Shown: positions 6,037-53,416, counted from the first letter of the stretch. The stretch is 64,000 bases of DNA from Dehalococcoidia bacterium (GCA_034421095.1 DAOUKR010000009.1:12694-76693), one strand, 5' to 3'. The notes: generated by a model not told the origin, from the sequence alone. Numbers and translations are program-made.

Positions 6037-7674
6037 ATGGCGGTCATGACCGGGGCACAGGCACTTGTACGTTCTCTGGCAAGGGAAGGGGTTGACGTGG
6101 TATTCGGGCTGCCAGGCCAACAGATTATGGAGGTCTTTGACGCTCTGCAAGGAGAGCCGTCTATACGTCTGGTCACGGTGCGCCATGAGCAGGGCACCAC
6201 ATATATGGCCGATGGCTATGCCCGCACTACGGGAAAGGTGGGCGTAGGTCTTGTAGTGCCAGGCCCCGGCGCCCTCAACGCCACTGCCGGTCTTGCCACC
6301 GCCTACGCCACCTCGTCTCCGGTACTCCTCATCAGCGGTCAGATGGAGAGCTATAACTTGGGCAAGAGACGCGGCGCTTTGCACGAGGTGGAAGACCAGC
6401 TGGATATTTTCCGGCCCATCACCAAGTGGTGTGACCGGATTCTCCAAGTGGATGGGATCCCGGATGCTGTCCACGAAGCCATGAAACAGCTACGCACCGG
6501 CAGGCCCAGGCCGGCAGAGTTGGAGATACCCTGGGACATCCTGCCGGTATCCGCCGATGTAGACTTGCCCGAGGCTGAAGTCTTTCCCAAACAAGCTCCA
6601 GACCTCGATAAAATAAAGACGGCGGCTGAGCTACTTCAACATGCTCGGAGGCCTCTCATCTGGGCTGGAGGAGGAACAATAGCCGCCGATGCCTCCCATG
6701 AACTTATCGAGCTTGCCACCACCCTCAACGCTCCGGTCATTACGACTCACCAGGCCAAGGGCATCATACCGGAGGACCACCAACTCTCGCTGGGGACCTT
6801 CTACTATGGGCATGGCCCTGGGTATCGTGCCATGCCCCAGGCCGACGTGATTCTGGCAGTAGGAAGCCGGCTCCACCTCACCCCCAGTGTCCCTTGGGCT
6901 TTCCAGGCTCACCAGAAACTCATCCACATAGACGCCGATTCCGCGGAGTTGGGCAGGAACCAGACCACTCAGGTGGCCATCACATCCGACGCCAGGCTGG
7001 GCCTCCAGTCAATTCTATCCCAGCTAGGAGGAAAATCGGCCAGCGAGTGGACTCACGGAGACATGGCGACCATCAAGAGGGAGGCTTATAGCGAGATTAA
7101 AGAGATGGCCCCTCTGGAAGTGGAGATTATCGAGACCCTGCGCCAGGAGCTTGAGGATGATGCTATCGTGGTAGGAGGAATCACCGGTGTGGGCTACTGG
7201 AGCTATCTGGCCTTTCCGGTGCTGAAACCTCGCTCCTATCTAACATCATCCTACTTTGCGACTTTGGGCTATGCCTTCCCCACCGCCATTGGAGCCAAGA
7301 TTGGAAACCCGGACCGTCAGGTTGTGGCTATATGTGGCGATGGCGGCTTTATGTATGGCATACCGGACCTTGCTACGGCCGTGCAGGAAGGTGTCGGCCT
7401 GGTTGTGCTCGTGTTCAACAACAGTTCCTTTGGCGCTTCCTTGTCCGACCAACAGACGCGTTTTAAGGGCAGGGTGTACGGCACTGAGCTTCAAAATCCC
7501 AATTTTGCTCGTTTGGCCGAGTCCTTTGGCGCGACGGGAATTGCGCTTTCAGGGCCGGGCGAATTGAGGGACGCCCTCAGAGGTGCCTTGAGGCGCAATG
7601 GCCCAGTGGTAATTGAGGTGCCCATGCCCCTCCTTACCTCGCCCTTTCAGGTTTCTCCAAAGGGTATGGAATAG
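6037..7674 (+). CDS. Thiamine-diphosphate-dependent enzyme (acetolactate synthase large-subunit-like)
   Basis: 545 aa with a three-domain ThDP layout. The ThDP-binding motif is CGDGGFMYGIPDLATAVQEGVGLVVLVFNNSSFG (GDG-x(n)-NN). Confidence 0.8.
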   Translation: MAVMTGAQALVRSLAREGVDVVFGLPGQQIMEVFDALQGEPSIRLVTVRHEQGTTYMADGYARTTGKVGVGLVVPGPGALNATAGLATAYATSSPVLLISGQMESYNLGKRRGALHEVEDQLDIFRPITKWCDRILQVDGIPDAVHEAMKQLRTGRPRPAELEIPWDILPVSADVDLPEAEVFPKQAPDLDKIKTAAELLQHARRPLIWAGGGTIAADASHELIELATTLNAPVITTHQAKGIIPEDHQLSLGTFYYGHGPGYRAMPQADVILAVGSRLHLTPSVPWAFQAHQKLIHIDADSAELGRNQTTQVAITSDARLGLQSILSQLGGKSASEWTHGDMATIKREAYSEIKEMAPLEVEIIETLRQELEDDAIVVGGITGVGYWSYLAFPVLKPRSYLTSSYFATLGYAFPTAIGAKIGNPDRQVVAICGDGGFMYGIPDLATAVQEGVGLVVLVFNNSSFGASLSDQQTRFKGRVYGTELQNPNFARLAESFGATGIALSGPGELRDALRGALRRNGPVVIEVPMPLLTSPFQVSPKGME

Positions 7675-7780
7675 ACCCCTGGCATGATGATTGTCTGCCC
7701 ATATCCTCTTCCTCCGGGTGTACCGTCCAACTTGACAGGGACTCTGAATGTTCCGCCTAGATGTTCTAAGGAGATGAGCG

Positions 7781-8620
7781 ATGCCAATACCAGTACCTTT
7801 CAGAAAACGTTCCGGTGTGGGTGTGGTAGAGATATTCGGAGCTATAGGTGGAGGTGCGAAGGTACAGGAGCAGTCCCGCATCCTGGACAGCCTCCGCAGG
7901 GACAGGCGGTTCAAAGCCGTGATAGTTGAGATAGACTCGCCCGGAGGGACCGCCTCGGGTTCCGAGCTACTGTACAACAGCCTGTTGAGGGTGGCCCAGG
8001 AAAAACCCGTGGTAGCCTACATCAGGGGTACGGGCGCTTCCGGTGCCTACTACATTAGCTGTGCCGCCAACAAAATAGTGGCATTGCCGTCCTCCCTTGT
8101 TGGGTCCATCGGCGTAATATACCTTCGCCCCGTGTTGCAGCAGCTACTCCAGAAGCTGGGTGTGAGCTTCTCGGTATACAAGAGCGGGGAGTTCAAGGAC
8201 ATGACGGGCTTCTGGCGCAGCCCTACCTCCGCAGAAGAAGACAGGTTCACGGGGCTTATAGATGAGATTTACGGCAACTTCATCCACTCGGTGGCTACGG
8301 GCAGACGGATGGATGAGGAGAAGGTAAGAGAGTACGCCACCGGAGAGGTCTTTACCGGCAGGGGCGCCCATGAGAGGGGCCTTGTGGACGAGCTGGGCGA
8401 TTTCGACCGTGCCCTGGACCTGGCGGCGGAACTGGGCAGGACCCGGCCGAGGCCGATGTGGATAAGGCGCAGGCGGCCATTCATGGAGCGGTTCATGGGC
8501 CGTATCGGCGGCCCGGGGGCAACGGGAGGGCTCGCTTCCGAGCTCGAACCTGTCCTGACGGGGGGCCTATATTACATGGACACACACCACCTGTTCAAGG
8601 GCCTGTGGGACGAGGACTGA
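7781..8620 (+). CDS. sppA: Signal peptide peptidase SppA, 36K type (S49 peptidase)
   Basis: VEIDSPGG and GTGASGAYYISCAANKIVA (Ser nucleophile context) are present. The length and order fit the short SppA/S49 family. Confidence 0.8.
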   Translation: MPIPVPFRKRSGVGVVEIFGAIGGGAKVQEQSRILDSLRRDRRFKAVIVEIDSPGGTASGSELLYNSLLRVAQEKPVVAYIRGTGASGAYYISCAANKIVALPSSLVGSIGVIYLRPVLQQLLQKLGVSFSVYKSGEFKDMTGFWRSPTSAEEDRFTGLIDEIYGNFIHSVATGRRMDEEKVREYATGEVFTGRGAHERGLVDELGDFDRALDLAAELGRTRPRPMWIRRRRPFMERFMGRIGGPGATGGLASELEPVLTGGLYYMDTHHLFKGLWDED

Positions 8621-8701
8621 ATCCAAGTTCTCGGAAATGAAGATACCTTCCGTAGAACTTATATGCTATGATATAAGTGAATTCTCCAATAAGGAGCGGT
8701 T

Positions 8702-10039
8702 TTGACTAAGGAGACAGGGGCTAGGCCATCAAATAGGCCGGTGCTCATACCGGATAGTCTGGAGTCTGAACGTGTGCAGATTGAGTCCAGATATAAGCCC
8801 ATCATACGTGAGGACCTCAAACTTGGCCGGTTAGTATCCTATGTCGGCAATAAGACCGTGCCATTCCTCCGGTTATATCGCTACAAGGAAGCCTTCTCAC
8901 TGGAGTTTGTGAATCGCTTCCTCGACTACTTTGATGCTAAACCCTGTAAGGATACGGTGTTCGACCCCTTTGCCGGCTTAGGCACGACTCTATTTGCGTC
9001 CATGCTCCGCGGAATACCATCCGTTGGTATTGAGAAGCTGCCTGTAGCTGCCTTCGCTTCTAAAACTCTACCGACGTTCTTCCAGATTAAGGAAGGAGAT
9101 ATTGTTGAGACTTTTCAAACACTGAAAAGCAGGGTAGACACTTCCTCCCAGACGGCAATAGCTGAGGGTGTGCCCATCCTTCCTCTTGCATTTGACGAGG
9201 ATATACTCATACGTTTGCGAAGATGGAAGACGGCGATTAACACCTTGGAATCACCTTTACGGGAATCATTCCTTCTACTGTTCTTTTCTATTCTCGAGTC
9301 CACCAGCTATACGGCAAAGGACGGTCAGTTTCTCCGGTTGAAGAGGGACAAGAGGCCGATGTATCCCGACGATGCCCTGCTGGAGAAGGTCCTTCAGGCG
9401 GAAACGGACATCATCATGGCACGCCGGGTTTGGGGTACTCTGAACGGTACGCTTGATAATTTGCCTCGTGTTTACGAAGCCGATACCCGTAATCTAGGAG
9501 GAATGGAGTTCCCTCAATCTCCTACTATCATTATTACCTCTCCCCCCTATGCGAACCGATACGACTATACCAGGAGCTATTGTTTGGAGCTTTGCTTCCA
9601 CTTTGTGAATAGCTTTGAAGAGTTAAAGGCTATCCGTTTCGGCATCCTGCGCTCCCATATAGAATCCAAGACTTCTGCAGAAGATGTCCCGGCCCATCCT
9701 GTAGTGGCTGAGGTGGTTACAAATCTTGGTTATCTGAAACTCAACAACCCTCGCATACCATTTATGCTTACGGCCTATTTTGTGGACATGGAAAAGGCCA
9801 TAAGAGAATGGAGCAAGGTGCTAGCTCCCGGCTCTAAAGTGGCCCTTGTAGTGGACAATGTTCGTTTTGAAGGGGAGATGATGCCCGTTGACTTGATATT
9901 GTCCGATATTGCGGAGCGGCACGGTTTTATTACGGAAGAAGTCATAGTAGCCCGTTATAAAGGCAACAGTTCTCAACAGATGGGACGCTATGGACGCGTC
10001 CCGGTTAGAGAGAGCGTTGTAGTGTGGAGAAAGCCATGA
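8702..10039 (+). CDS. Type II DNA methyltransferase (N6-adenine or N4-cytosine, amino-MTase)
   Basis: TTG start preceded by AAGGAG. The SAM motif I is FDPFAGLGTT near residue 90. The catalytic motif IV is SPPY (IIITSPPYANRYDY) near residue 280. The order I...IV with a long insert suggests an alpha-like permutation. Confidence 0.8.
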   Translation: MTKETGARPSNRPVLIPDSLESERVQIESRYKPIIREDLKLGRLVSYVGNKTVPFLRLYRYKEAFSLEFVNRFLDYFDAKPCKDTVFDPFAGLGTTLFASMLRGIPSVGIEKLPVAAFASKTLPTFFQIKEGDIVETFQTLKSRVDTSSQTAIAEGVPILPLAFDEDILIRLRRWKTAINTLESPLRESFLLLFFSILESTSYTAKDGQFLRLKRDKRPMYPDDALLEKVLQAETDIIMARRVWGTLNGTLDNLPRVYEADTRNLGGMEFPQSPTIIITSPPYANRYDYTRSYCLELCFHFVNSFEELKAIRFGILRSHIESKTSAEDVPAHPVVAEVVTNLGYLKLNNPRIPFMLTAYFVDMEKAIREWSKVLAPGSKVALVVDNVRFEGEMMPVDLILSDIAERHGFITEEVIVARYKGNSSQQMGRYGRVPVRESVVVWRKP

Positions 10040-11031
10040 CCCAACCTGACCTCCAGCGAGAGGCAGAGCGCGCAAGGTATACCCTTCGATCCTCATTCTT
10101 CTATAGGATACATTTTCAGTGGACGACGCTACTGGCATTAGCTGAACAGCAGGTGGGTTCCTCCAGCTTGGAGTGGAGTCAATTACAAGAGCTAGGGGTT
10201 TCTGACACCGCTTGGGACCAGGTTCAGGACAAGGGTATAGACCCTACTCTCGTGTTCTGCCATCCCGAAGTAGTCAGAAACGCGCCTCCTCTCATAGCAT
10301 ATTACCGGTGTTTGGCACTTCTGCCACAGAAGGGTCTCCAGCGATTAGCTGCCTCTTCAACGAAGAACCTAGAAGAAGGCTCAAGCTCCAATTTAAGCCG
10401 ACCGAAAGCGCAACGAATAGCTCATGTTTTGAATAGCCTCATTTGTTTACTTGTGGAATCTGACTCCAATTGGACGCTTGAGAACGCCCGAGTTGCCGCT
10501 CTACTTAACTTTGGCACCCAGATAAACGGTTCCTGGCGCAATGAAATTGGGAGCGAAGGGGGCAGGCGAGTAAAGGCATTGTTGGTGGGCAGTTCAGCGG
10601 AGTCAGAACTAGTCAAGAACATCATCAGACTGGACAACTCTATAGTAACTCCCTCGGATGAAGTTCCTTCCATTGAGGACATTCGAGGACTCATCACCGT
10701 CACTGATTACGCTATTACTTTCAGCAGTGAACCTGACGTGTCTATCCGTAACAGTCAGGGTACGCTGGTCGCTACCATTGAAGTCAAATATGGCCTTGAC
10801 CCGGCTGGGGCCCTCGAACGCTATGGGGCGGCAAAGAAGTCCTTTGAGGAAGCTGTTCGGGAGAACAGTCGTGTTATGAACGTTTACCTGCCAAGCATGA
10901 TTACACCCGAGGTGCGGCGTCGTATAGACGATGACAGGCTCGTCAACCAAGACTTCAACCTTACTGAGGTCCTGGGGAATAGTGAAAGACGGCGGGAATT
11001 CATCGGATACGTCAGGCGTTTGATTACCTGA
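10036..11031 (+). CDS. Putative type II restriction endonuclease (PD-(D/E)xK)
   Basis: The ATG at 10036 overlaps the methyltransferase TGA (ATGA) and follows GGAG. It carries the candidate catalytic motif EPD-x14-EVK (SSEPDVSIRNSQGTLVATIEVKYG). Specificity is unknown. Confidence 0.55.
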   Translation: MTQPDLQREAERARYTLRSSFFYRIHFQWTTLLALAEQQVGSSSLEWSQLQELGVSDTAWDQVQDKGIDPTLVFCHPEVVRNAPPLIAYYRCLALLPQKGLQRLAASSTKNLEEGSSSNLSRPKAQRIAHVLNSLICLLVESDSNWTLENARVAALLNFGTQINGSWRNEIGSEGGRRVKALLVGSSAESELVKNIIRLDNSIVTPSDEVPSIEDIRGLITVTDYAITFSSEPDVSIRNSQGTLVATIEVKYGLDPAGALERYGAAKKSFEEAVRENSRVMNVYLPSMITPEVRRRIDDDRLVNQDFNLTEVLGNSERRREFIGYVRRLIT

Positions 11032-11168: not shown

Positions 11169-12155
11169 ATGAGTAAAGGGGCCGAGTTTAGAAAGCTGCT
11201 TTCGGAGGAGCCTTACGTCTACACCAGCGGCGTCTACTCGCCCATGGAGGCGAGAATCGCCGAGGAGGTGGGCCTCAAATGCGTCTACATGAGCGGCTAC
11301 TCCTGCGCTCTGGGATATCTGGGCCGGGCTGATTTGGGATTCCCCACCATGACGGAGATGACTACCTGGGCCAAGTACATTACCCGGGCCGTCAACATCC
11401 CGGTCATAGCAGATGCCGACGACGGCTATGGCAACGCGCTCATCACCACGCGGACCATCGAGGAGTATGAGCGGACGGGCGTGGCGGCCATTCACCTTGA
11501 AGACCAACGCCTCCCCAAGCGCTGCGGCCACCTGGCGGGAAAGTATTGCCTGCCCATGGAGGAGTCGGTGCTGAAGCTCAAGGCCGCTCTCAACGCCAGG
11601 TCCGACCCCGATTTCTTCATAATCGCCCGAACGGATGCGGTGAGCGCCGTCGGGGGTGGCATGGAAGAGGCCATTGAGCGAGGCAAGCGCTACGCAGACG
11701 CCGGCGCTGACATGGTCTGGCCGGAGTTTCCCACCCCTGACCGCAAGTATGCAGAGCTATATGCCGAGGCTATGGACAAAGACTTCCCCGGCCTGCCCCT
11801 GGGCTTTAACTACTCTTCCTCCTTCAAATGGACCGAGGCCGAGGACCCTGTCACGTTCAAGGAGTTGGGCCGGATGGGTTACAAGTACATATTCATCAGC
11901 ATGGGCGCGCTCCACGCAGCTATGTACGCGGAGTGGAATTTCCTGAAGGACCTCAGCGAAAATCAGGAGAAGGCCCAACTGAGGTTGCAAGCGCTCAAGG
12001 ACGGCCACCCCACGGAGAACCATCACGTGATGGGCAGGTTCGACCACTTTCAGAAACTGGAAGAAGAGTACCTGCCCCAGGAGATGGTGCAGGAGCGCTA
12101 CAGCGCCACCCAGGGCTTCGGTGCCCGTGATTTCCACGCCAGGGATGTCCTGTAA
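11169..12155 (+). CDS. Isocitrate lyase/PEP mutase family enzyme, probably a compact isocitrate lyase
   Basis: The family signature KRCGHLAGK and DADDGYG are present. Position directly upstream of malate synthase suggests a glyoxylate shunt. At 328 aa it is shorter than classical AceA, so methylisocitrate lyase cannot be excluded. Confidence 0.65.
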   Translation: MSKGAEFRKLLSEEPYVYTSGVYSPMEARIAEEVGLKCVYMSGYSCALGYLGRADLGFPTMTEMTTWAKYITRAVNIPVIADADDGYGNALITTRTIEEYERTGVAAIHLEDQRLPKRCGHLAGKYCLPMEESVLKLKAALNARSDPDFFIIARTDAVSAVGGGMEEAIERGKRYADAGADMVWPEFPTPDRKYAELYAEAMDKDFPGLPLGFNYSSSFKWTEAEDPVTFKELGRMGYKYIFISMGALHAAMYAEWNFLKDLSENQEKAQLRLQALKDGHPTENHHVMGRFDHFQKLEEEYLPQEMVQERYSATQGFGARDFHARDVL

Positions 12156-12210
12156 CGGCATCCCCAAGACTTGACTGGATACCCCTGACAATAACAATCC
12201 CTGAGGAGGT

Positions 12211-13926
12211 ATGCCTATGGCAACCGTATCCGAGAGAGTGAAGTACGCGCCGGTGGAAAACGCCGACGAACTTTTTACCCCCGAGTTCATCGAGTACCTG
12301 ACGCTTCTGCACGACAGGTTCACCCCCAAGGTACATGCTCTGCGCGCCAAAAGGGCCGAAGTGTTGGAGAAGGTCCTCCATCGGGGAGTATCCTTCGACC
12401 ACCCCCCGGTATCGGAGATAAATACCGGGGACTGGAAGGTCCCTCCGGTCCCCGAAGATTTGAGAAGGCCCGGTATCGAAATATCGGGGCCGTGCTCAAT
12501 CACCGGGATGTTTATCAACGCCCTTAATCCCGGTCCCGAGGGGGAGAGAGCAGAGGGAGACCTGGACGATGACGAGGACTCGGGTGGACACCGGTTCATA
12601 GACACGGTGCAGGCAGCGCAGAACCGCCTGAAGGCTGTCGAGCGTACCCTGGTCTTCCACAACCCGGAGAGGCAAAGGGAGTACCGCATTGATGAAGGTG
12701 AGATTCCCTTCTTCATGCACAGGGAGCGTGGACTTCACCTCGACGAGCCCGAGGTGACCGTGGACGGGACTCCCATACCTGCTGCCATTCTTGGTACAGC
12801 GCTGACCTTCTTCTATGCGGGTAAGGCACAGATTGACCGGGGCCAGGGAGTCTACTTCTACCTTCCCAAGGTGGAATCTGCCGAAGAGGTAGCTTTCTAC
12901 AGGGAACTTTTCGACGCAAGCATGGAGCACCTGGGGTTCCCTGAAAGCGCCGTCGTAAGGGCTATTCCCCTGGTCGAGGCCCTCCCCGCAATCTATGAGA
13001 TGGAGGAGATGCTGTACGCCCTGGGCCCCTACGCGGCCGGCCTCAACGCTGCCCGATGGGACCTCAAGGCGAGCATTCTCGAATACATCATGACGGACTC
13101 CAACTCGGTATGGCCCGACCGGTTCGGAGTTGACATCAAAACGACCGAATTCCTGGCGAACATCTTCAGGCGTCTGGTGGCTATCTGTCTCAAGAGAGGT
13201 GCGGTCCCCATCGGAGGTATGGCAACGGCGCTGCCCAGCCGGGATGATGAGGTCAACAGGGTGGCAGGCGAGTCCATACGGGCCGACAAGGAATGGGAGG
13301 CAGCGCAGGGATTTATAAGGGGATGGGTCGCACATATCTTCCACATGAAAACGGCGGCGGACCCATTCAAGGAACTGATAGCGTCCGGGTGGGAGCCGTC
13401 CCCCGAGATGTACAATCCCGATCATTATCCCGTTGAAGTCAAGGTCCCCGAAGGCCCTATCACCATAGAGGGAACGCGCCGGAACGCGCGAATGTTGATT
13501 GAGTACGTGGAGGGTTGGCTGAACGGGAGAGGGGCCAAGGGCATTGACAGCCTTGCAGGCAAACCGGGCATCCATCCCGCCCTGATGGAAGACCTGGCAA
13601 CGGGCCGTATATCCGTGGCGCAAGTGGCCCAGAGAATTCGGCATCAGGCGAAGGACGTGAACACAGGTCAGGCCCACAGTTTCGGGCTAGTGAAGCAGTT
13701 GCTTCGCGAAGAGGTTGATGACATCCTTGCCCAGTTGAAGGCGACGGTCGCGGAAGGGGATGAGCGAAGCCAGGCGGCCTATGCTCAGGCCGAGGAGCGT
13801 TACCAGAAATCGGTGAGAATCGCCATGCGATGGATTAAGAATTATACCGTGTTGGACTTCAGGAGCCTGGGGTCGTACACGAGGGCGGACCTTGATGCCA
13901 TCGCCGGGGCGGAGGACGCCTTTTAA
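12211..13926 (+). CDS. aceB: Malate synthase (A-type)
   Basis: 571 aa with segments characteristic of malate synthase A: FYLPKVESAEE, GLNAARWDL, PIGGMATALP. Confidence 0.75.
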   Translation: MPMATVSERVKYAPVENADELFTPEFIEYLTLLHDRFTPKVHALRAKRAEVLEKVLHRGVSFDHPPVSEINTGDWKVPPVPEDLRRPGIEISGPCSITGMFINALNPGPEGERAEGDLDDDEDSGGHRFIDTVQAAQNRLKAVERTLVFHNPERQREYRIDEGEIPFFMHRERGLHLDEPEVTVDGTPIPAAILGTALTFFYAGKAQIDRGQGVYFYLPKVESAEEVAFYRELFDASMEHLGFPESAVVRAIPLVEALPAIYEMEEMLYALGPYAAGLNAARWDLKASILEYIMTDSNSVWPDRFGVDIKTTEFLANIFRRLVAICLKRGAVPIGGMATALPSRDDEVNRVAGESIRADKEWEAAQGFIRGWVAHIFHMKTAADPFKELIASGWEPSPEMYNPDHYPVEVKVPEGPITIEGTRRNARMLIEYVEGWLNGRGAKGIDSLAGKPGIHPALMEDLATGRISVAQVAQRIRHQAKDVNTGQAHSFGLVKQLLREEVDDILAQLKATVAEGDERSQAAYAQAEERYQKSVRIAMRWIKNYTVLDFRSLGSYTRADLDAIAGAEDAF

Positions 13927-14017
13927 CGGCTGTCCCCTGATGATGCTTGAATTGGCATCTCCATTGGCATAAAATGGGATGCGACCCACGTACACTTATC
14001 TTACGAGGTGACACCAA

Positions 14018-14260
14018 TTGACTCAGGAGAGGACCGCCACCATTACCATATACACCCACCCGGAGTGTTCTTATTCCACAGCAGCTAAGGATGACTTCGT
14101 AAAGCAGGGTGTGGACTTCCATGAGATAGACGTGAGCCTCCACCCCGAGGCCGTTCCAGACCTGGAGCAGCTTACGGGAGGCGAGCGGATCACTCCCGTG
14201 ATAGTCGAGGGAGATACCGTGACGGTAGGTTATCACGGAGTAGGTTGAGCCTTCGAATAG
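14018..14260 (+). CDS. Glutaredoxin-like protein, probable selenoprotein with Sec (TGA 14246-14248) four codons before TAG
   Basis: TTG start. It has a Grx fold with a single active-site Cys (HPECSYS). The track ORF ends ...GYHGVG-TGA. Read-through gives U-A-F-E-TAG, and a SECIS-like hairpin starts 13 nt after the TGA. Confidence 0.55.
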
Positions 14261-14261
14261 G

Positions 14262-14280
14262 GGGGAGCGGTCTGCTCCCC
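14262..14280 (+). promoter_or_regulatory. Candidate bacterial SECIS hairpin (alternatively a terminator stem)
   Basis: GGGGAGC-GGTCT-GCTCCCC forms a 7-bp GC stem with a GGUCU loop. No T-tract follows it. The loop resembles the GGUC apical loop of the E. coli fdhF SECIS. Confidence 0.5.
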
Positions 14281-14380
14281 TGAAGGGTCTCAACTTCGTT
14301 GACAGCAGCTTCACAGAAGCTTAGAATCGAGATATGACCTAGCCTGGCTTACGAGCCCGGCTGCTTTCAGGCACATTCAA

Positions 14381-14457
14381 GGACCCGTAGTGTAGAGGCC
14401 TAACACACTGCCCTGTCAAGGCAGAGATCGCCAGTTCGAATCTGGTCGGGTCCGCCA
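14381..14457 (+). tRNA. tRNA-Asp (anticodon GTC), CCA encoded
   Basis: GGACCCGTAGTGTAGAGGCCTAACACACTGCCCTGTCAAGGCAGAGATCGCCAGTTCGAATCTGGTCGGGTCCGCCA. The anticodon loop is CTGTCAA. Confidence 0.9.
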
Positions 14458-14533: not shown

Positions 14534-15622
14534 TTACTCCTGGCCCTCGGTGTTAAGGTACTCCATGCGGCCGGCCACGTAGCTCCAATCGAGATAACCT
14601 GTCTCGAAGTCCCTGTACCCCGAGGAGGGGTCGTACTGGCTCCTGCTGTGCAAGACCCTGAAATTCTGAATTAGTAAACAATCGCCGCTTTCCATGCGGA
14701 AGCGGTATTGGTATGCCGGGTCGTTCAGGTACTGGGAGAAGAGGCTGTAAGCCCGATAGTACCCGGCTACCTCGTCGAAGGGGAGTTGCCAGTCAATGTT
14801 CTTGGGGGAGTAGTAGACGGCTTCGACTTCCCCGGGGCCGTCCAGGACCAGGATGGAAGTGGTGTGCTTGAAAAGGTATCCGGTCTGCCTGTCATACTGA
14901 CGAAATCGTATCGGCGTGCGGGCCAACACCTGGAACTCATCGGGGTGGTGCAAGCGAAAGTCCCTTGCCACTCGAAATCCGTCCACTAGGATGCTTTCGC
15001 CGCCAGACGTGGTGTTCCCGTGGGCGTAGAGGAACTGCAACAGCCGCTCCCCGTACCTGTAGGAGCCGTCGGTGTGGGGCAGCAGGCTATCGCCGGCGTC
15101 GGAAAAGGCCAGGTCCTTGGCCGCCGGCGTTGGCTTGACCCTGGATGAGTCCCCATATTCCGTTGTGTGAACAGGGCCAATGGCGCCGAACCAGTGATGC
15201 AAGTCTTCCGGAGCAAGGCGGCGTATAATGGCAAAGCCCAGAGTCGTGAGTTGACGAGTCCATGACTCGAAGGAAATGGAGGAAGCATCCAAGTGTTCCG
15301 GCGGGTGCGCCTCAAGCCATGGATGGTCCCACATCGTGAGTGCGCTTTGATGCTCCCTCCTGGGCACCGGGTCGTAAGAGTGGCTCAGGAGCCATCCGAT
15401 TGGGAAAACGCTTTCGTGGGGTGGGGCTTCCTTCCAGAGAATGCGAAGCTCTTCTGCCCCTTCCTCAACGGAGATTGGCTCCGGGGGAATAGGGCTGAGA
15501 CTTACGTCGTAGATTTTTTGAGACGAATTTGGATGATAACACGCAGGGCATAAACAATGGTCACGCAGCCACGTGTAATGAAAGCGCTTGCCATGCACAG
15601 TCACATAACCTTCGTTCATCAT
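14534..15622 (-). CDS. Gamma-butyrobetaine hydroxylase-like Fe(II)/2-oxoglutarate dioxygenase (TauD/TfdA superfamily)
   Basis: The N-terminal zinc-knuckle domain (RDHCLCPACYH, DUF971-like) is followed by a TauD-like core with an HxD facial-triad element (LLPHTDGSY). Confidence 0.7.
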   Translation of the reverse strand: MMNEGYVTVHGKRFHYTWLRDHCLCPACYHPNSSQKIYDVSLSPIPPEPISVEEGAEELRILWKEAPPHESVFPIGWLLSHSYDPVPRREHQSALTMWDHPWLEAHPPEHLDASSISFESWTRQLTTLGFAIIRRLAPEDLHHWFGAIGPVHTTEYGDSSRVKPTPAAKDLAFSDAGDSLLPHTDGSYRYGERLLQFLYAHGNTTSGGESILVDGFRVARDFRLHHPDEFQVLARTPIRFRQYDRQTGYLFKHTTSILVLDGPGEVEAVYYSPKNIDWQLPFDEVAGYYRAYSLFSQYLNDPAYQYRFRMESGDCLLIQNFRVLHSRSQYDPSSGYRDFETGYLDWSYVAGRMEYLNTEGQE

Positions 15623-46612: not shown

Positions 46613-47239
46613 TCAATAGACCACACTGTGCCAACGTCTTTGCCGTATGGCGGTCACCATGTGTCGAAGAGTACGAACCAGATAGTTACCCACGACAAAA
46701 AGGGTCAGGACCAGGCATACCCCAATTAGAGGCCAGGGCTGCCCGGTAACGATAATGAGAACATTAAACAAAATGAATCCAACTGCCACTCCAATGACCA
46801 CGTTCCTGATAGTCAGGATAGCCACCACTAAAGGGACGACTGATATGGCGGCCAGGGGCGGAGCCAGTGCCAGGCCCACCCCAAGAATGGTAGCGGCCCC
46901 TTTGCCGCCCCGGAAGTTAAGAAAGACGGGCCACGTGTGACCAATGACCGCCGCAATAGCACAGCCATAGCGTGCCCAGTCGGGTGCCCCTATCCACAGG
47001 GGCAAAAAGACTGCTACCACACCTTTGGAAGCGTCGGCTATCAAAATGGCAATACCGGCCGCAGGTCCCATCTGTTGATAGGCGTTCAGCGCCCCCACGT
47101 TGCCGGTCCCGAGAGTCCTGATGTCGGTTTTTCTGGTGAGTCGTACCAGAATATAGGCTGAAGGTATCGAGCCAAGGATGTATCCCAGAAAGATGCTCAA
47201 CACGGCCAGCCATGTCTCCAATTGTGTCACCTCCGGCAC
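46613..47239 (-). CDS. plsY: Acyl-phosphate:glycerol-3-phosphate acyltransferase PlsY
   Basis: GYILGSIPSAYI, GTGNVGALNA and FRGGKGAAT are PlsY motifs. Confidence 0.85.
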   Translation of the reverse strand: MPEVTQLETWLAVLSIFLGYILGSIPSAYILVRLTRKTDIRTLGTGNVGALNAYQQMGPAAGIAILIADASKGVVAVFLPLWIGAPDWARYGCAIAAVIGHTWPVFLNFRGGKGAATILGVGLALAPPLAAISVVPLVVAILTIRNVVIGVAVGFILFNVLIIVTGQPWPLIGVCLVLTLFVVGNYLVRTLRHMVTAIRQRRWHSVVY

Positions 47240-52789: not shown

Positions 52790-53416
52790 TCAATCCAGGG
52801 GACCTGCCACGATTTTGCCGAAGGTCTTGGGCGCAGTCTCGTCCCGAAAAGGTAGGCTATGGGCGGTTGATTCCCACCCCTCTCCCGTGTCTATCTCTAT
52901 TCCCAGGCCGTCGGCTATCCTCACCATGTAGTTGTAAAGGGCGGTTATGTGGACAATGTCTATGATGTCCTCGTCCGTCCAGCCAACGTCACGTAGCCCC
53001 TGTACGTTCTCCTGCATAACACCGGCCGGGGCTTCGTTGAGAAGCTCGGCGAACTCCAGCATTGCGACCTGCTTTGGAGTCAACCCGGCGTTGTGGTAGT
53101 CGGTCCCTGCCTGTCTCGCAAGCTGGGAGTCGGGGTCCTCGGTACGCAGAAACTCTGCGTGAGCCGTGGTTCAATACTGACACCGGTTGAGGGCCGAGAC
53201 CACCGTGGCAATCATCTGCCTCTCGGCCGGAGTCAACCCTGATTCGCTCTGCATGACATTCCGATTATGGATGGAGAGGGTCTTCATAAGGTGGGGGCGG
53301 AGACTGCTGACCGACATTACGTTGTTAATCGTTCCCCTCGCTTGGAGCGCCTCGTCATACATAGCCTTGAGCTCTCCCCTGGCCTCACCGTATGGAACAG
53401 TCCGCACGTAGGGCAT
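52790..53416 (-). CDS. AhpD/carboxymuconolactone-decarboxylase-family protein, probable selenoprotein (CxxU; Sec codon TGA at 53171-53173)
   Basis: Track ORFs 53171..53416 and 52790..53083 are in the same frame. The joined translation reads ...VVSALNRCQY-U-TTAHAEFLRTEDP...LTPKQVAMLEFAELL, which places the TGA at the second Cys of the family CxxCxxxH motif. A hairpin lies 10 nt downstream. Confidence 0.7.
53144..53160 (-). promoter_or_regulatory. Candidate bacterial SECIS hairpin
   Basis: On the mRNA it reads ACGCAGA-GUU-UCUGCGU, a perfect 7-bp stem with a loop starting with G-U. It begins 10 nt 3' of the in-frame UGA. Confidence 0.55.

Follow-up and report, generated by a model that had tools for sequence, protein, structure and literature searches.

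A small glutaredoxin-like gene in the window, by which is meant the whole 64,000-nucleotide stretch of Dehalococcoidia DNA that was analysed, runs into a TGA codon that is followed by three sense codons, a TAG and a GC-rich hairpin. This arrangement raises the question of whether the TGA is an ordinary stop, or whether it is decoded as selenocysteine (Sec) under the direction of the hairpin, so that the protein ends only at the TAG. A preliminary description, made from the raw sequence alone, had proposed the second possibility. The comparison with relatives described below makes the reading of the TGA as Sec and of the hairpin as its SECIS element highly probable, as far as sequences can tell.

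The gene, its family and its predicted fold

The features of the coding region are listed below, with positions counted from the first letter of the window.

13947–13975, plus strand: promoter-like TTGAAT-17-TAAAAT, about 43 nt 5′ of the start codon (consensus scan, 9/12)
14005–14011, plus strand: Shine–Dalgarno-like GAGGTGA, 6 nt 5′ of the TTG start (direct reading of the sequence)
14018–14260, plus strand: full coding sequence of the predicted Grx-like selenoprotein, 80 codons (M1...G76-U77-A78-F79-E80), with the probable true stop TAG at 14258–14260
14066–14068, plus strand: TGT codon of Cys17, the sole Cys of the product, in the C-x-x-S motif H14-P15-E16-C17-S18-Y19-S20
14246–14248, plus strand: in-frame TGA, preceded by G74-V-G76 and probably read as Sec (U77)
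14249–14257, plus strand: codons GCC TTC GAA (A-F-E) behind the putative Sec codon, followed by TAG 14258–14260

In the list of open reading frames, the frame with the TTG start extends up to the TGA (14018–14248, plus strand) and encodes 76 residues, beginning with MTQERTATITIYTHPECSYS and closing with ...VGYHGVG; its complete translation is MTQERTATITIYTHPECSYSTAAKDDFVKQGVDFHEIDVSLHPEAVPDLEQLTGGERITPVIVEGDTVTVGYHGVG. The preliminary description was accurate on all of these points: a 76-residue frame of the Grx fold that ends in GVG-TGA, a single active-site Cys within HPECSYS (C17, codon 14066–14068, and indeed the only Cys), and a read-through that adds A-F-E (GCC TTC GAA) before the TAG at 14258–14260. 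The weak promoter-like site at 13947–13975, recognised by its match to the consensus, is possibly the gene's own promoter. In an alignment of 49 homologues, the residues Y12, H14, P15, C17, E36, L52, G55, T59, P60, V61, G71 and G74 are invariant, with S20 present in at least 90% of the sequences.

The protein matches the curated model NF041211, “UXX-star (seleno)protein family 2”, for which the cut-off is 100 bits, with 118.4 bits as the 76-residue product and with 126.4 bits as the read-through product (U being written as C for scoring). The profile is covered from position 1 to 71 of 71 only with the TGA read through, and its last three positions match U(C)-A-F; as the profile ends at U-A-F, E80 is an overhang. 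The parent subfamily NF041212 (Uxx-star family glutaredoxin-like (seleno)protein) gave 105.7 bits versus a cut-off of 66, and the Pfam Glutaredoxin domain PF00462 gave 40.9 bits versus 22.9. The product is a member neither of the NrdH family (TIGR02194, 36 versus 85.75) nor of the Grx3 family (TIGR02181, 37 versus 90) nor of the Grx4-type monothiol glutaredoxins with CGFS (TIGR00365, 12.5 versus 117.1 bits), and it scored far below the cut-off of the mycoredoxin model. The glutaredoxin-like bacterial families with a C-terminal Sec that the preliminary description had called to mind thus exist, the product standing above the NF041211 cut-off. A 2026 review lists UXX-star family 2 as a predicted selenoprotein with the motif GxGU, credits the family to Haft and Tolstoy (mSystems 2025) and favors metal ligation or unknown substrates for it (PMC13188914). 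Since the family has already been curated and published, the assignment made here, though correct, is no discovery. Like other members, whose homologues mix Sec and Cys forms, the protein of the window combines the score above the equivalog cut-off with the Grx fold, the G-x-G-U motif and a predicted Sec that only a few residues separate from the C-terminus. It differs in having three residues after the Sec (A-F-E) instead of two, a feature found also in nine of the 80 related loci, and this U-x-x-x-stop is a minor length variant that departs from the strict “XX” of the family name. Searches for protein-level evidence and for a solved structure of any family member found none.

An AlphaFold2 model of the 76-residue form (mean pLDDT 82.9) predicts strand 9–13, helix 18–30, strand 34–38, helix 43–53 and strands 61–64 and 67–70, i.e., a beta-alpha-beta-alpha-beta-beta order followed by a low-confidence tail from residue 71, with the usual C-terminal (third) helix missing. 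The best Foldseek matches were glutaredoxins and NrdH, with TM-scores of 0.76–0.78 to NrdH and Grx3. With classical glutaredoxins, NrdH and the Clostridium UxxC Sec-glutaredoxin the protein has in common its fold, a cis-Pro loop (T59-P60) and a Gly motif that follows strand 4. The window protein differs from all of these in its C-x-x-S in place of C-x-x-C or U-x-x-C, from the classical glutaredoxins and NrdH in the lack of the C-terminal helix, and from the Clostridium protein in that its Sec would stand at the C-terminus and not in the N-terminal active site. Taken together with the evidence that follows, it is very probable that the gene encodes an 80-residue selenoprotein of the Grx fold belonging to UXX-star family 2.

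Conservation of the TGA codon and of the tail behind it

The comparison was made on 81 loci, consisting of the window and the best 80 of the 345 genomes in which a relative was found, one genome per species having been scanned; all of these best 80 come from Dehalococcoidia, SAR202 or other Chloroflexota MAGs. The first in-frame stop past the G-x-G (or G-G-Y/T) is TGA in the window and in each of the best 80 relatives, i.e., TGA occupies the Sec position in 81/81 loci, while ordinary stops in the same DNA, counted over 1062 long ORFs, are TGA in 33%, TAG in 48% and TAA in 19%. This contradicts the opposite pattern, considered in the preliminary description, of homologues that all end in HGVG at stops other than TGA. 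The true stop behind the tail varies freely (TAG in 60 loci, TAA in 12 and TGA in nine). The tail itself is short and nearly fixed, with two residues after the Sec in 71/81 loci (SF in 40, AF in 14, NF in four, and others) and three in 10/81, namely the window and nine relatives (AFD in five, AFE in three, SFD and SFE in one each). The second codon after the TGA encodes Phe in 77/81 loci, Tyr in three and Met in one, and Phe is written with both TTC and TTT. At the first codon, Ser is drawn from two codon families (AGC, AGT and TCG) and Ala from all four GCN codons. The retention of the amino acids of the tail while their synonymous codons change indicates that the codons past the TGA are translated. 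The ending G-[C/U]-x-x(-x)-stop, which had been proposed as the thing to look for, is therefore what the homologues have: the TGA, two or three conserved codons and then a variable stop.

The Cys alternative of this ending was found as well. A profile search of 1.84 billion representative sequences, which also returned many truncated forms, and an earlier homologue search yielded at least 12 homologues in which Cys replaces the TGA in front of the same short tail (G-x-G-C-x-x-stop). Among the Cys forms are P0133 (...GYGGVG-C-AF, with the active site HPDCDAS), P0166 (...GFHGIG-C-AF), P0142 (...GIG-C-NFS) and, from the first homologue search, P0106 (...GIG-C-NYS); P0150, P0165, P0244, P0245, P0267 and others likewise have Cys at the position of the TGA. 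A check for Cys at the aligned position thus gave a positive answer, as the endings GVG-C-AF and GIG-C-AF illustrate. A changed genetic code, with TGA standing for another amino acid, was rejected, as TGA terminates 20 of the 48 long ORFs of the window itself, which points to the standard genetic code.

The hairpin behind the TGA and the probable decoding of selenocysteine

Two further features lie at and behind the end of the coding sequence.

14261–14281, plus strand: SECIS-like upper stem-loop, seven Watson–Crick pairs and one G.U pair, wholly in the predicted 3′ UTR
14240–14297, plus strand: extended SECIS-like structure with a predicted lower stem, in which the UGA and the tail codons (14242–14254) pair with 14282–14297

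The upper stem-loop consists of GGGGAGC (14262–14268), the loop GGTCT (14269–14273) and GCTCCCC (14274–14280), and the pair G14261.T14281 lengthens the stem to eight pairs. Its seven-bp core starts 13 nt past the TGA and one base past the TAG, 20 nt separate the A of the UGA from the first base of the loop, and the GU of the loop (14270–14271) falls at positions 25–26 if the U of the UGA is counted as 1. The element is exactly the one that had been described beforehand (GGGGAGC-GGUCU-GCUCCCC, 13 nt after the TGA and with no U-tract): there is no run of T behind it, and a terminator scan returned no terminator. Folding of a 61-nt segment containing the TGA gave −29.4 kcal/mol (z = −3.46), and none of 200 shuffled sequences was as stable. 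The lower stem is present in both the minimum-free-energy and the centroid structure, and, judged by eye, the close relative L001 appears to keep it, with GCCTTC/GAAGG of the window changed to GCGTTC/GAACG.

The hairpin is conserved in 77–81 of the 81 loci, being GC-rich in general and AT-rich in SAR202, with stems of 5–10 bp (mode 7), GT in the loop in 76/81 and the loop G located 19–25 nt from the U of the UGA. A hairpin of this strength at this position was found in 95% of the family loci versus 10% of 1055 control stops, and one that in addition carries GT in its loop in 94% of the 81 loci versus 2.7% of the control stops. Covariation was scored over the eight-pair helix in a plain MAFFT alignment (A2) that had been fitted to no structure. 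This alignment brings the loops into register as N-G-U-N-N, with a C-G closing pair in 71 of 80 sequences. The cells of the helix are paired in 84% of cases, compared with 42–56% with the 3′ partner slid one to three columns along, and 98 cells carry double changes, which occur at all eight pairs, compared with 35 ± 5 in shuffled alignments, none of 500 shuffles reaching 98. The core four pairs are independently predicted by RNAalifold. The question raised in the preliminary description, namely whether a downstream hairpin is conserved in the homologues, can therefore be answered in the affirmative, with covariation beyond both the shuffled and the slid controls.

Three genes of the Cys form (L083, L084 and L085) served as natural controls, and none of them has such a hairpin. 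In L084 the gene reads TGC-GCC-TTC-TAG and a tRNA-Asp gene follows about 22 nt after the stop, yet there is no hairpin, which implies that the hairpin travels with the TGA and not with the end of the gene or with the tRNA. A role of the hairpin as a terminator was rejected on account of the missing U-tract and of its absence from L084 in front of the tRNA-Asp.

Bacterial SECIS elements are expected to place the apical loop 16–37 nt downstream of the UGA (PMC10778597) and to have a stem of 6–8 bp whose loop carries a conserved G some 20 nt past the UGA (PMC4605307); the hairpin of the window agrees with both rules, in its loop distance as well as in its stem and loop G. As in the SECIS of E. 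coli fdhF, the hairpin follows directly upon the UGA and has an apical loop of the GGUC type. The fdhF loop is GC-AGGUCU-GC with the essential G23-U24, and the loop of the window, GC-GGUCU-GC, is one base shorter, with its GU nearly as far from the UGA as the fdhF pair. The GU of the loop, counted from the U, stands at 25–26 in the window and at 22–24 in most relatives, and the fdhF element lies within the coding sequence, whereas that of the window lies in the 3′ UTR, an unusual arrangement for bacteria. The position almost entirely within the 3′ UTR follows from the closeness of the Sec to the end of the protein. Rfam searches of the whole window at gathering thresholds, and of 14200–14340 at permissive E-values, returned tRNAs and noise only; we know of no bacterial SECIS model in Rfam. 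The identification of the hairpin as a SECIS element is thus supported by comparative sequence evidence, and through it the binding of SelB and the insertion of Sec would be expected. A SECIS located in the 3′ UTR has been found to function for C-terminal Sec in E. coli (PMC10778597).

Whether the organism decodes Sec at all was approached indirectly. No relevant match was obtained with E. coli SelA, SelB and SelD in tblastn searches for selA, selB and selD in the window and in 80 related 20-kb loci, the single SelB match (in L009) covering only the N-terminal 140 residues, which we take to be the GTPase region; nor did the 64 kb of the window or 1.5 Mb of related loci contain a tRNA-Sec. Given that neither sel genes nor tRNA-Sec lie in these stretches, the Sec machinery of this genome is assumed. 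Indirect backing for Sec decoding comes from two sides, the Dehalococcoidia MAGs for which 46–49 selenoproteins have been reported and which count among the selenoprotein-rich bacteria (PMC13326102), and an AhpD-like gene of the window itself. This second Sec candidate, 39 kb away, had also been put forward in the preliminary description, and it proved to be real. The gene (53416–52790, minus strand) has a TGA at 53170–53168 in the context C-Q-Y-U-T-T-A-H, which is the AhpD/CMD motif C-x-x-C-x-x-x-H with U. Its read-through product matches TIGR01926 (peroxidase-related enzyme) across the TGA with 133 bits versus a cut-off of 81.8. The TGA of this gene is followed by a hairpin (ACGCAG-AGUUU-CUGCGU) that has the same type of loop and, with GU 21–22 nt from the U, the same spacing. 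A scan of the whole window for a TGA combined with a SECIS-like hairpin gave five matches, i.e., the Grx-like gene, the AhpD-like gene and three artefacts. Of the latter, those at 47119 (plus strand) and 31953 (minus strand) lie in shadow frames of real genes, and that at 12128 (plus strand) lies out of frame within the isocitrate-lyase-like gene; none of the three is credible.

The alternative that the TGA is an ordinary stop has to be weighed against this body of evidence. It would leave a 76-residue monothiol Grx-like protein, and the hairpin would act as a terminator, as a stabiliser or as an insulator in front of a tRNA-Asp promoter. Such a reading is in line with public gene callers, which end nearly all homologues at the TGA, and with the absence of sel genes from the window; moreover, a strong sigma-70-type promoter, TTGACA-17-TAGAAT (14299–14327, 11/12), begins 18 nt past the hairpin and precedes the tRNA-Asp gene, which is found downstream on the same strand in 45/81 loci. 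It does not, however, account for TGA in every one of the 81 loci against a baseline of 33% while the next stop varies freely, for the two to three codons past the TGA that are conserved in their amino acids with synonymous changes, or for the Cys homologues that align at the position of the TGA. The hairpin speaks against it as well, as it has no U-tract, is present in loci that lack the tRNA-Asp, is missing from the Cys-form L084 that has one, and contains a GU loop and a fixed spacing from the UGA that an ordinary stop would leave unexplained. An ordinary stop is accordingly considered very improbable.

Genomic neighbourhood, proposed mechanism and function

If the TGA is decoded as Sec, the following sequence of events can be proposed, and we infer it from the elements described above. 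The ribosome would reach the UGA at codon 77, while the GC hairpin, with its N-G-U-N-N loop about 20 nt downstream, would hold SelB and Sec-tRNA(Sec) at the mRNA entrance, so that Sec is inserted; A-F-E would be translated next, followed by termination at the TAG. In the folded protein, homology with glutaredoxins suggests a single site lined by the active-site Cys, T59-P60 of the cis-Pro loop and the Gly motif behind strand 4, and the Gly-rich tail, with the Sec three to six residues past G71 and G74, can plausibly reach Cys17. This flexible tail (G71-x-x-G74-x-G76-U77) would then bring the selenol to Cys17, beside the invariant His14, where Cys17 and Sec77 could form either a selenenylsulfide redox pair or a joint site for a soft-metal ion. 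A Cys17–Sec77 pair, possibly together with His14, is favored because the tail plausibly reaches Cys17, and the chemistry envisaged beforehand, of a CxxS thiol with a resolving Sec, is likewise plausible. Mammalian thioredoxin reductase (-Gly-Cys-Sec-Gly) offers a parallel, in that both proteins would carry Sec on a flexible Gly-rich C-terminal tail near a partner thiol, and in that thioredoxin reductase made in E. coli uses a SECIS which still works when placed past the true stop (PMC10778597), the position that the hairpin has in the window. In contrast to thioredoxin reductase, which is a flavoenzyme with the partner Cys right beside the Sec, the window protein is a 9-kDa Grx fold that has its partner Cys in a separate C-x-x-S motif, and its 3′-UTR SECIS is natural and not engineered.

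The genes around the Grx-like gene give a further lead. In the window, an isocitrate-lyase-like gene (methylisocitrate/isocitrate; 11169–12155) and a malate synthase A-like gene (12211–13926) precede it, and tRNA-Asp(GTC) (14381–14457) follows. Clustering of the neighbours in the 81 loci found no protein-coding partner conserved in most of them, and no neighbour family occurs in more than 14–16 of the 81; the top neighbour “family” turned out to be an antisense shadow ORF of the Grx-like gene itself and was discarded. Of the 81 Sec loci, 15 have a CopA-type copper P-type ATPase a short way upstream in the same orientation; in six Sec loci a CsoR-type repressor stands ahead of CopA, and in nine CopA is separated from the Grx-like gene by a small YHS-domain gene. 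In L007, the order by Pfam is PF02583, two HMA domains with an E1-E2 ATPase, PF04945 and the Grx-like gene. The Cys form P0166 is likewise found in the order CsoR-CopA-YHS-Grx-like (three contigs), and the Cys form P0106 directly after CopA. The CsoR-CopA-YHS context thus recurs in both Sec and Cys forms, with 49–84% identity to the window protein. Neither the window nor its closest relatives, L001 and L002, has the copper operon, and in these two relatives malate synthase lies upstream.

The position of the Grx-like gene as the last one after CopA in many relatives makes a role in copper stress the most likely one, and from this context we infer that copper homeostasis is likely the arena of the family. 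In such a role the protein would keep copper-handling cysteines reduced, or would handle Cu(I), during copper stress. The CopA context, found in about a fifth of the loci, could on the other hand reflect inherited synteny and no link in function. The copper link, or the synteny with tRNA-Asp and CsoR-CopA-YHS, may already have been described in the primary paper on the family. A more specific proposal, which can be put forward only tentatively, is that the selenoprotein of UXX-star family 2 is dedicated to copper homeostasis. Its gene would be the last of an ancestral CsoR-CopA-YHS-Grx-like unit that stands beside tRNA-Asp in Dehalococcoidia, and its site, formed by Cys17, His14 and Sec77, would bind Cu(I) or return cysteines of the copper ATPase and of its partner proteins to the reduced state.

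Two other readings accept the insertion of Sec and differ in what the protein is for. The protein might be a general thiol-disulfide (selenenylsulfide) oxidoreductase that substitutes for thioredoxin or NrdH, has no special link to metals and has its Cys17/Sec77 pair recycled by thioredoxin reductase. The Grx/NrdH fold, the presence of the gene in 345 species-level genomes of one class, the usual combination of an own promoter-like site with no conserved protein-coding neighbour, and the location of the window gene beside genes of central metabolism would all fit such a general enzyme, and it is quite possible, if short of probable. The recurrence of the CsoR-CopA-YHS context in both Sec and Cys forms is harder to reconcile with it, and so is the invariant His-Pro before the active-site Cys, which to our knowledge Grx and NrdH do not typically have; the preference of the review for metal ligation or unknown substrates (PMC13188914) also points elsewhere. 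The second reading holds that Sec insertion is partial and that the UGA works as a selenium-dependent switch between the 80-residue Sec form and a functional 76-residue monothiol form. In bacteria the insertion of Sec is generally in competition with release factor 2, and stopping at the UGA would remove just four residues and leave the whole fold intact. The strict [S/A]-F tail together with the conserved SECIS, however, points to selection on the full-length form, so that a switch of this kind appears unlikely.

The recurrent copper-operon context provides a testable lead on the function of the family, and if the protein were indeed dedicated to copper homeostasis, selenium would be a component of bacterial copper efflux. 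The locus would also be a clear-cut case from nature of a bacterial SECIS that works in the 3′ UTR, the very arrangement that engineers use for proteins with a C-terminal Sec in E. coli. The family itself was already known, and what is added here is the quantitative case for the 3′-UTR SECIS, the controls with the Cys forms and the copper-operon lead. That the family could be inferred from the raw sequence alone in the preliminary description validates reading of this kind. Nearly all of the 126 close homologues in public protein sets have been called as ending at the TGA; since standard gene callers truncate the gene in this way, its recognition matters for annotation and for the selenoprotein counts of Dehalococcoidia.

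Copper genes beside the Grx-like family

Among the related loci, one gene order was found repeatedly, in which a CsoR-type repressor is followed by a CopA-type copper ATPase, a YHS-domain protein, the UXX-star Grx-like gene and tRNA-Asp. This recurrent order, which is seen for instance at 6866-10433 of the related locus L007, suggests a role of the family in copper homeostasis. The CopA-type context was met in further loci of the selenocysteine (Sec) form (L004, L006, L008, L012, L014-L018, L023, L048, L052, L061 and L074) and in loci of the cysteine form (L083 and L085-L087), and the CsoR-CopA-YHS-Grx-like arrangement was not found in the window.

Neighbours of the Grx-like gene in the window

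The surroundings of the gene contain the following features:
11169-13926, methylisocitrate/isocitrate-lyase-like and malate synthase A-like genes, side by side, upstream
13859-14314, minus strand, antisense ORF of 151 aa spanning the entire Grx-like gene
14299-14327, near-consensus sigma-70 promoter, TTGACA-17-TAGAAT, 11/12 matches
14381-14457, tRNA-Asp(GTC)
14534-15622, minus strand, dioxygenase (TmpA/gamma-butyrobetaine dioxygenase relative), directly downstream of the tRNA

The upstream pair, common only to the window, L001 and L002, occupies the position held by the cop operon in other Dehalococcoidia; both genes score under their equivalog cut-offs, and their adjacency suggests a glyoxylate-shunt pair. 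The antisense ORF was rejected as a gene. Its recurrence in 16 loci is explained solely by the conservation of the Grx-like gene that it shadows.

The promoter begins 18 nt 3′ of the hairpin of the Grx-like gene and is predicted to drive the tRNA; the TTCGTTGACA motif was found again in close relatives, and a same-strand tRNA-Asp lies downstream of the Grx-like gene in 45 of the 81 loci. The score of the dioxygenase, 218 bits, stays below the cut-off of 400.

A second selenoprotein candidate and a variant C-terminus

The window contains another gene with an in-frame TGA:
52790-53416, minus strand, AhpD/CMD-like gene, TGA at 53170-53168

Here, the TGA sits inside C-Q-Y-U-T-T-A-H, and the match of the read-through product to TIGR01926 (peroxidase-related enzyme; 133 bits, cut-off 81.8) spans it. 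A hairpin, ACGCAG-AGUUU-CUGCGU, starts 13 nt past the TGA; the GU of its loop is 21-22 nt away from the U of this codon. The gene probably encodes a second selenoprotein of the window.

In a sub-branch of the Grx-like family (L038, L050, L066, L067, L075 and L077), the C-terminus reads ...G-[FY]-K-G-G-[YT]-TGA-[DE]-F-stop. Since Tyr or Thr, not Gly, precedes the predicted Sec in these six loci, the G-x-G-U motif is, as read from these termini, not universal in UXX-star family 2.
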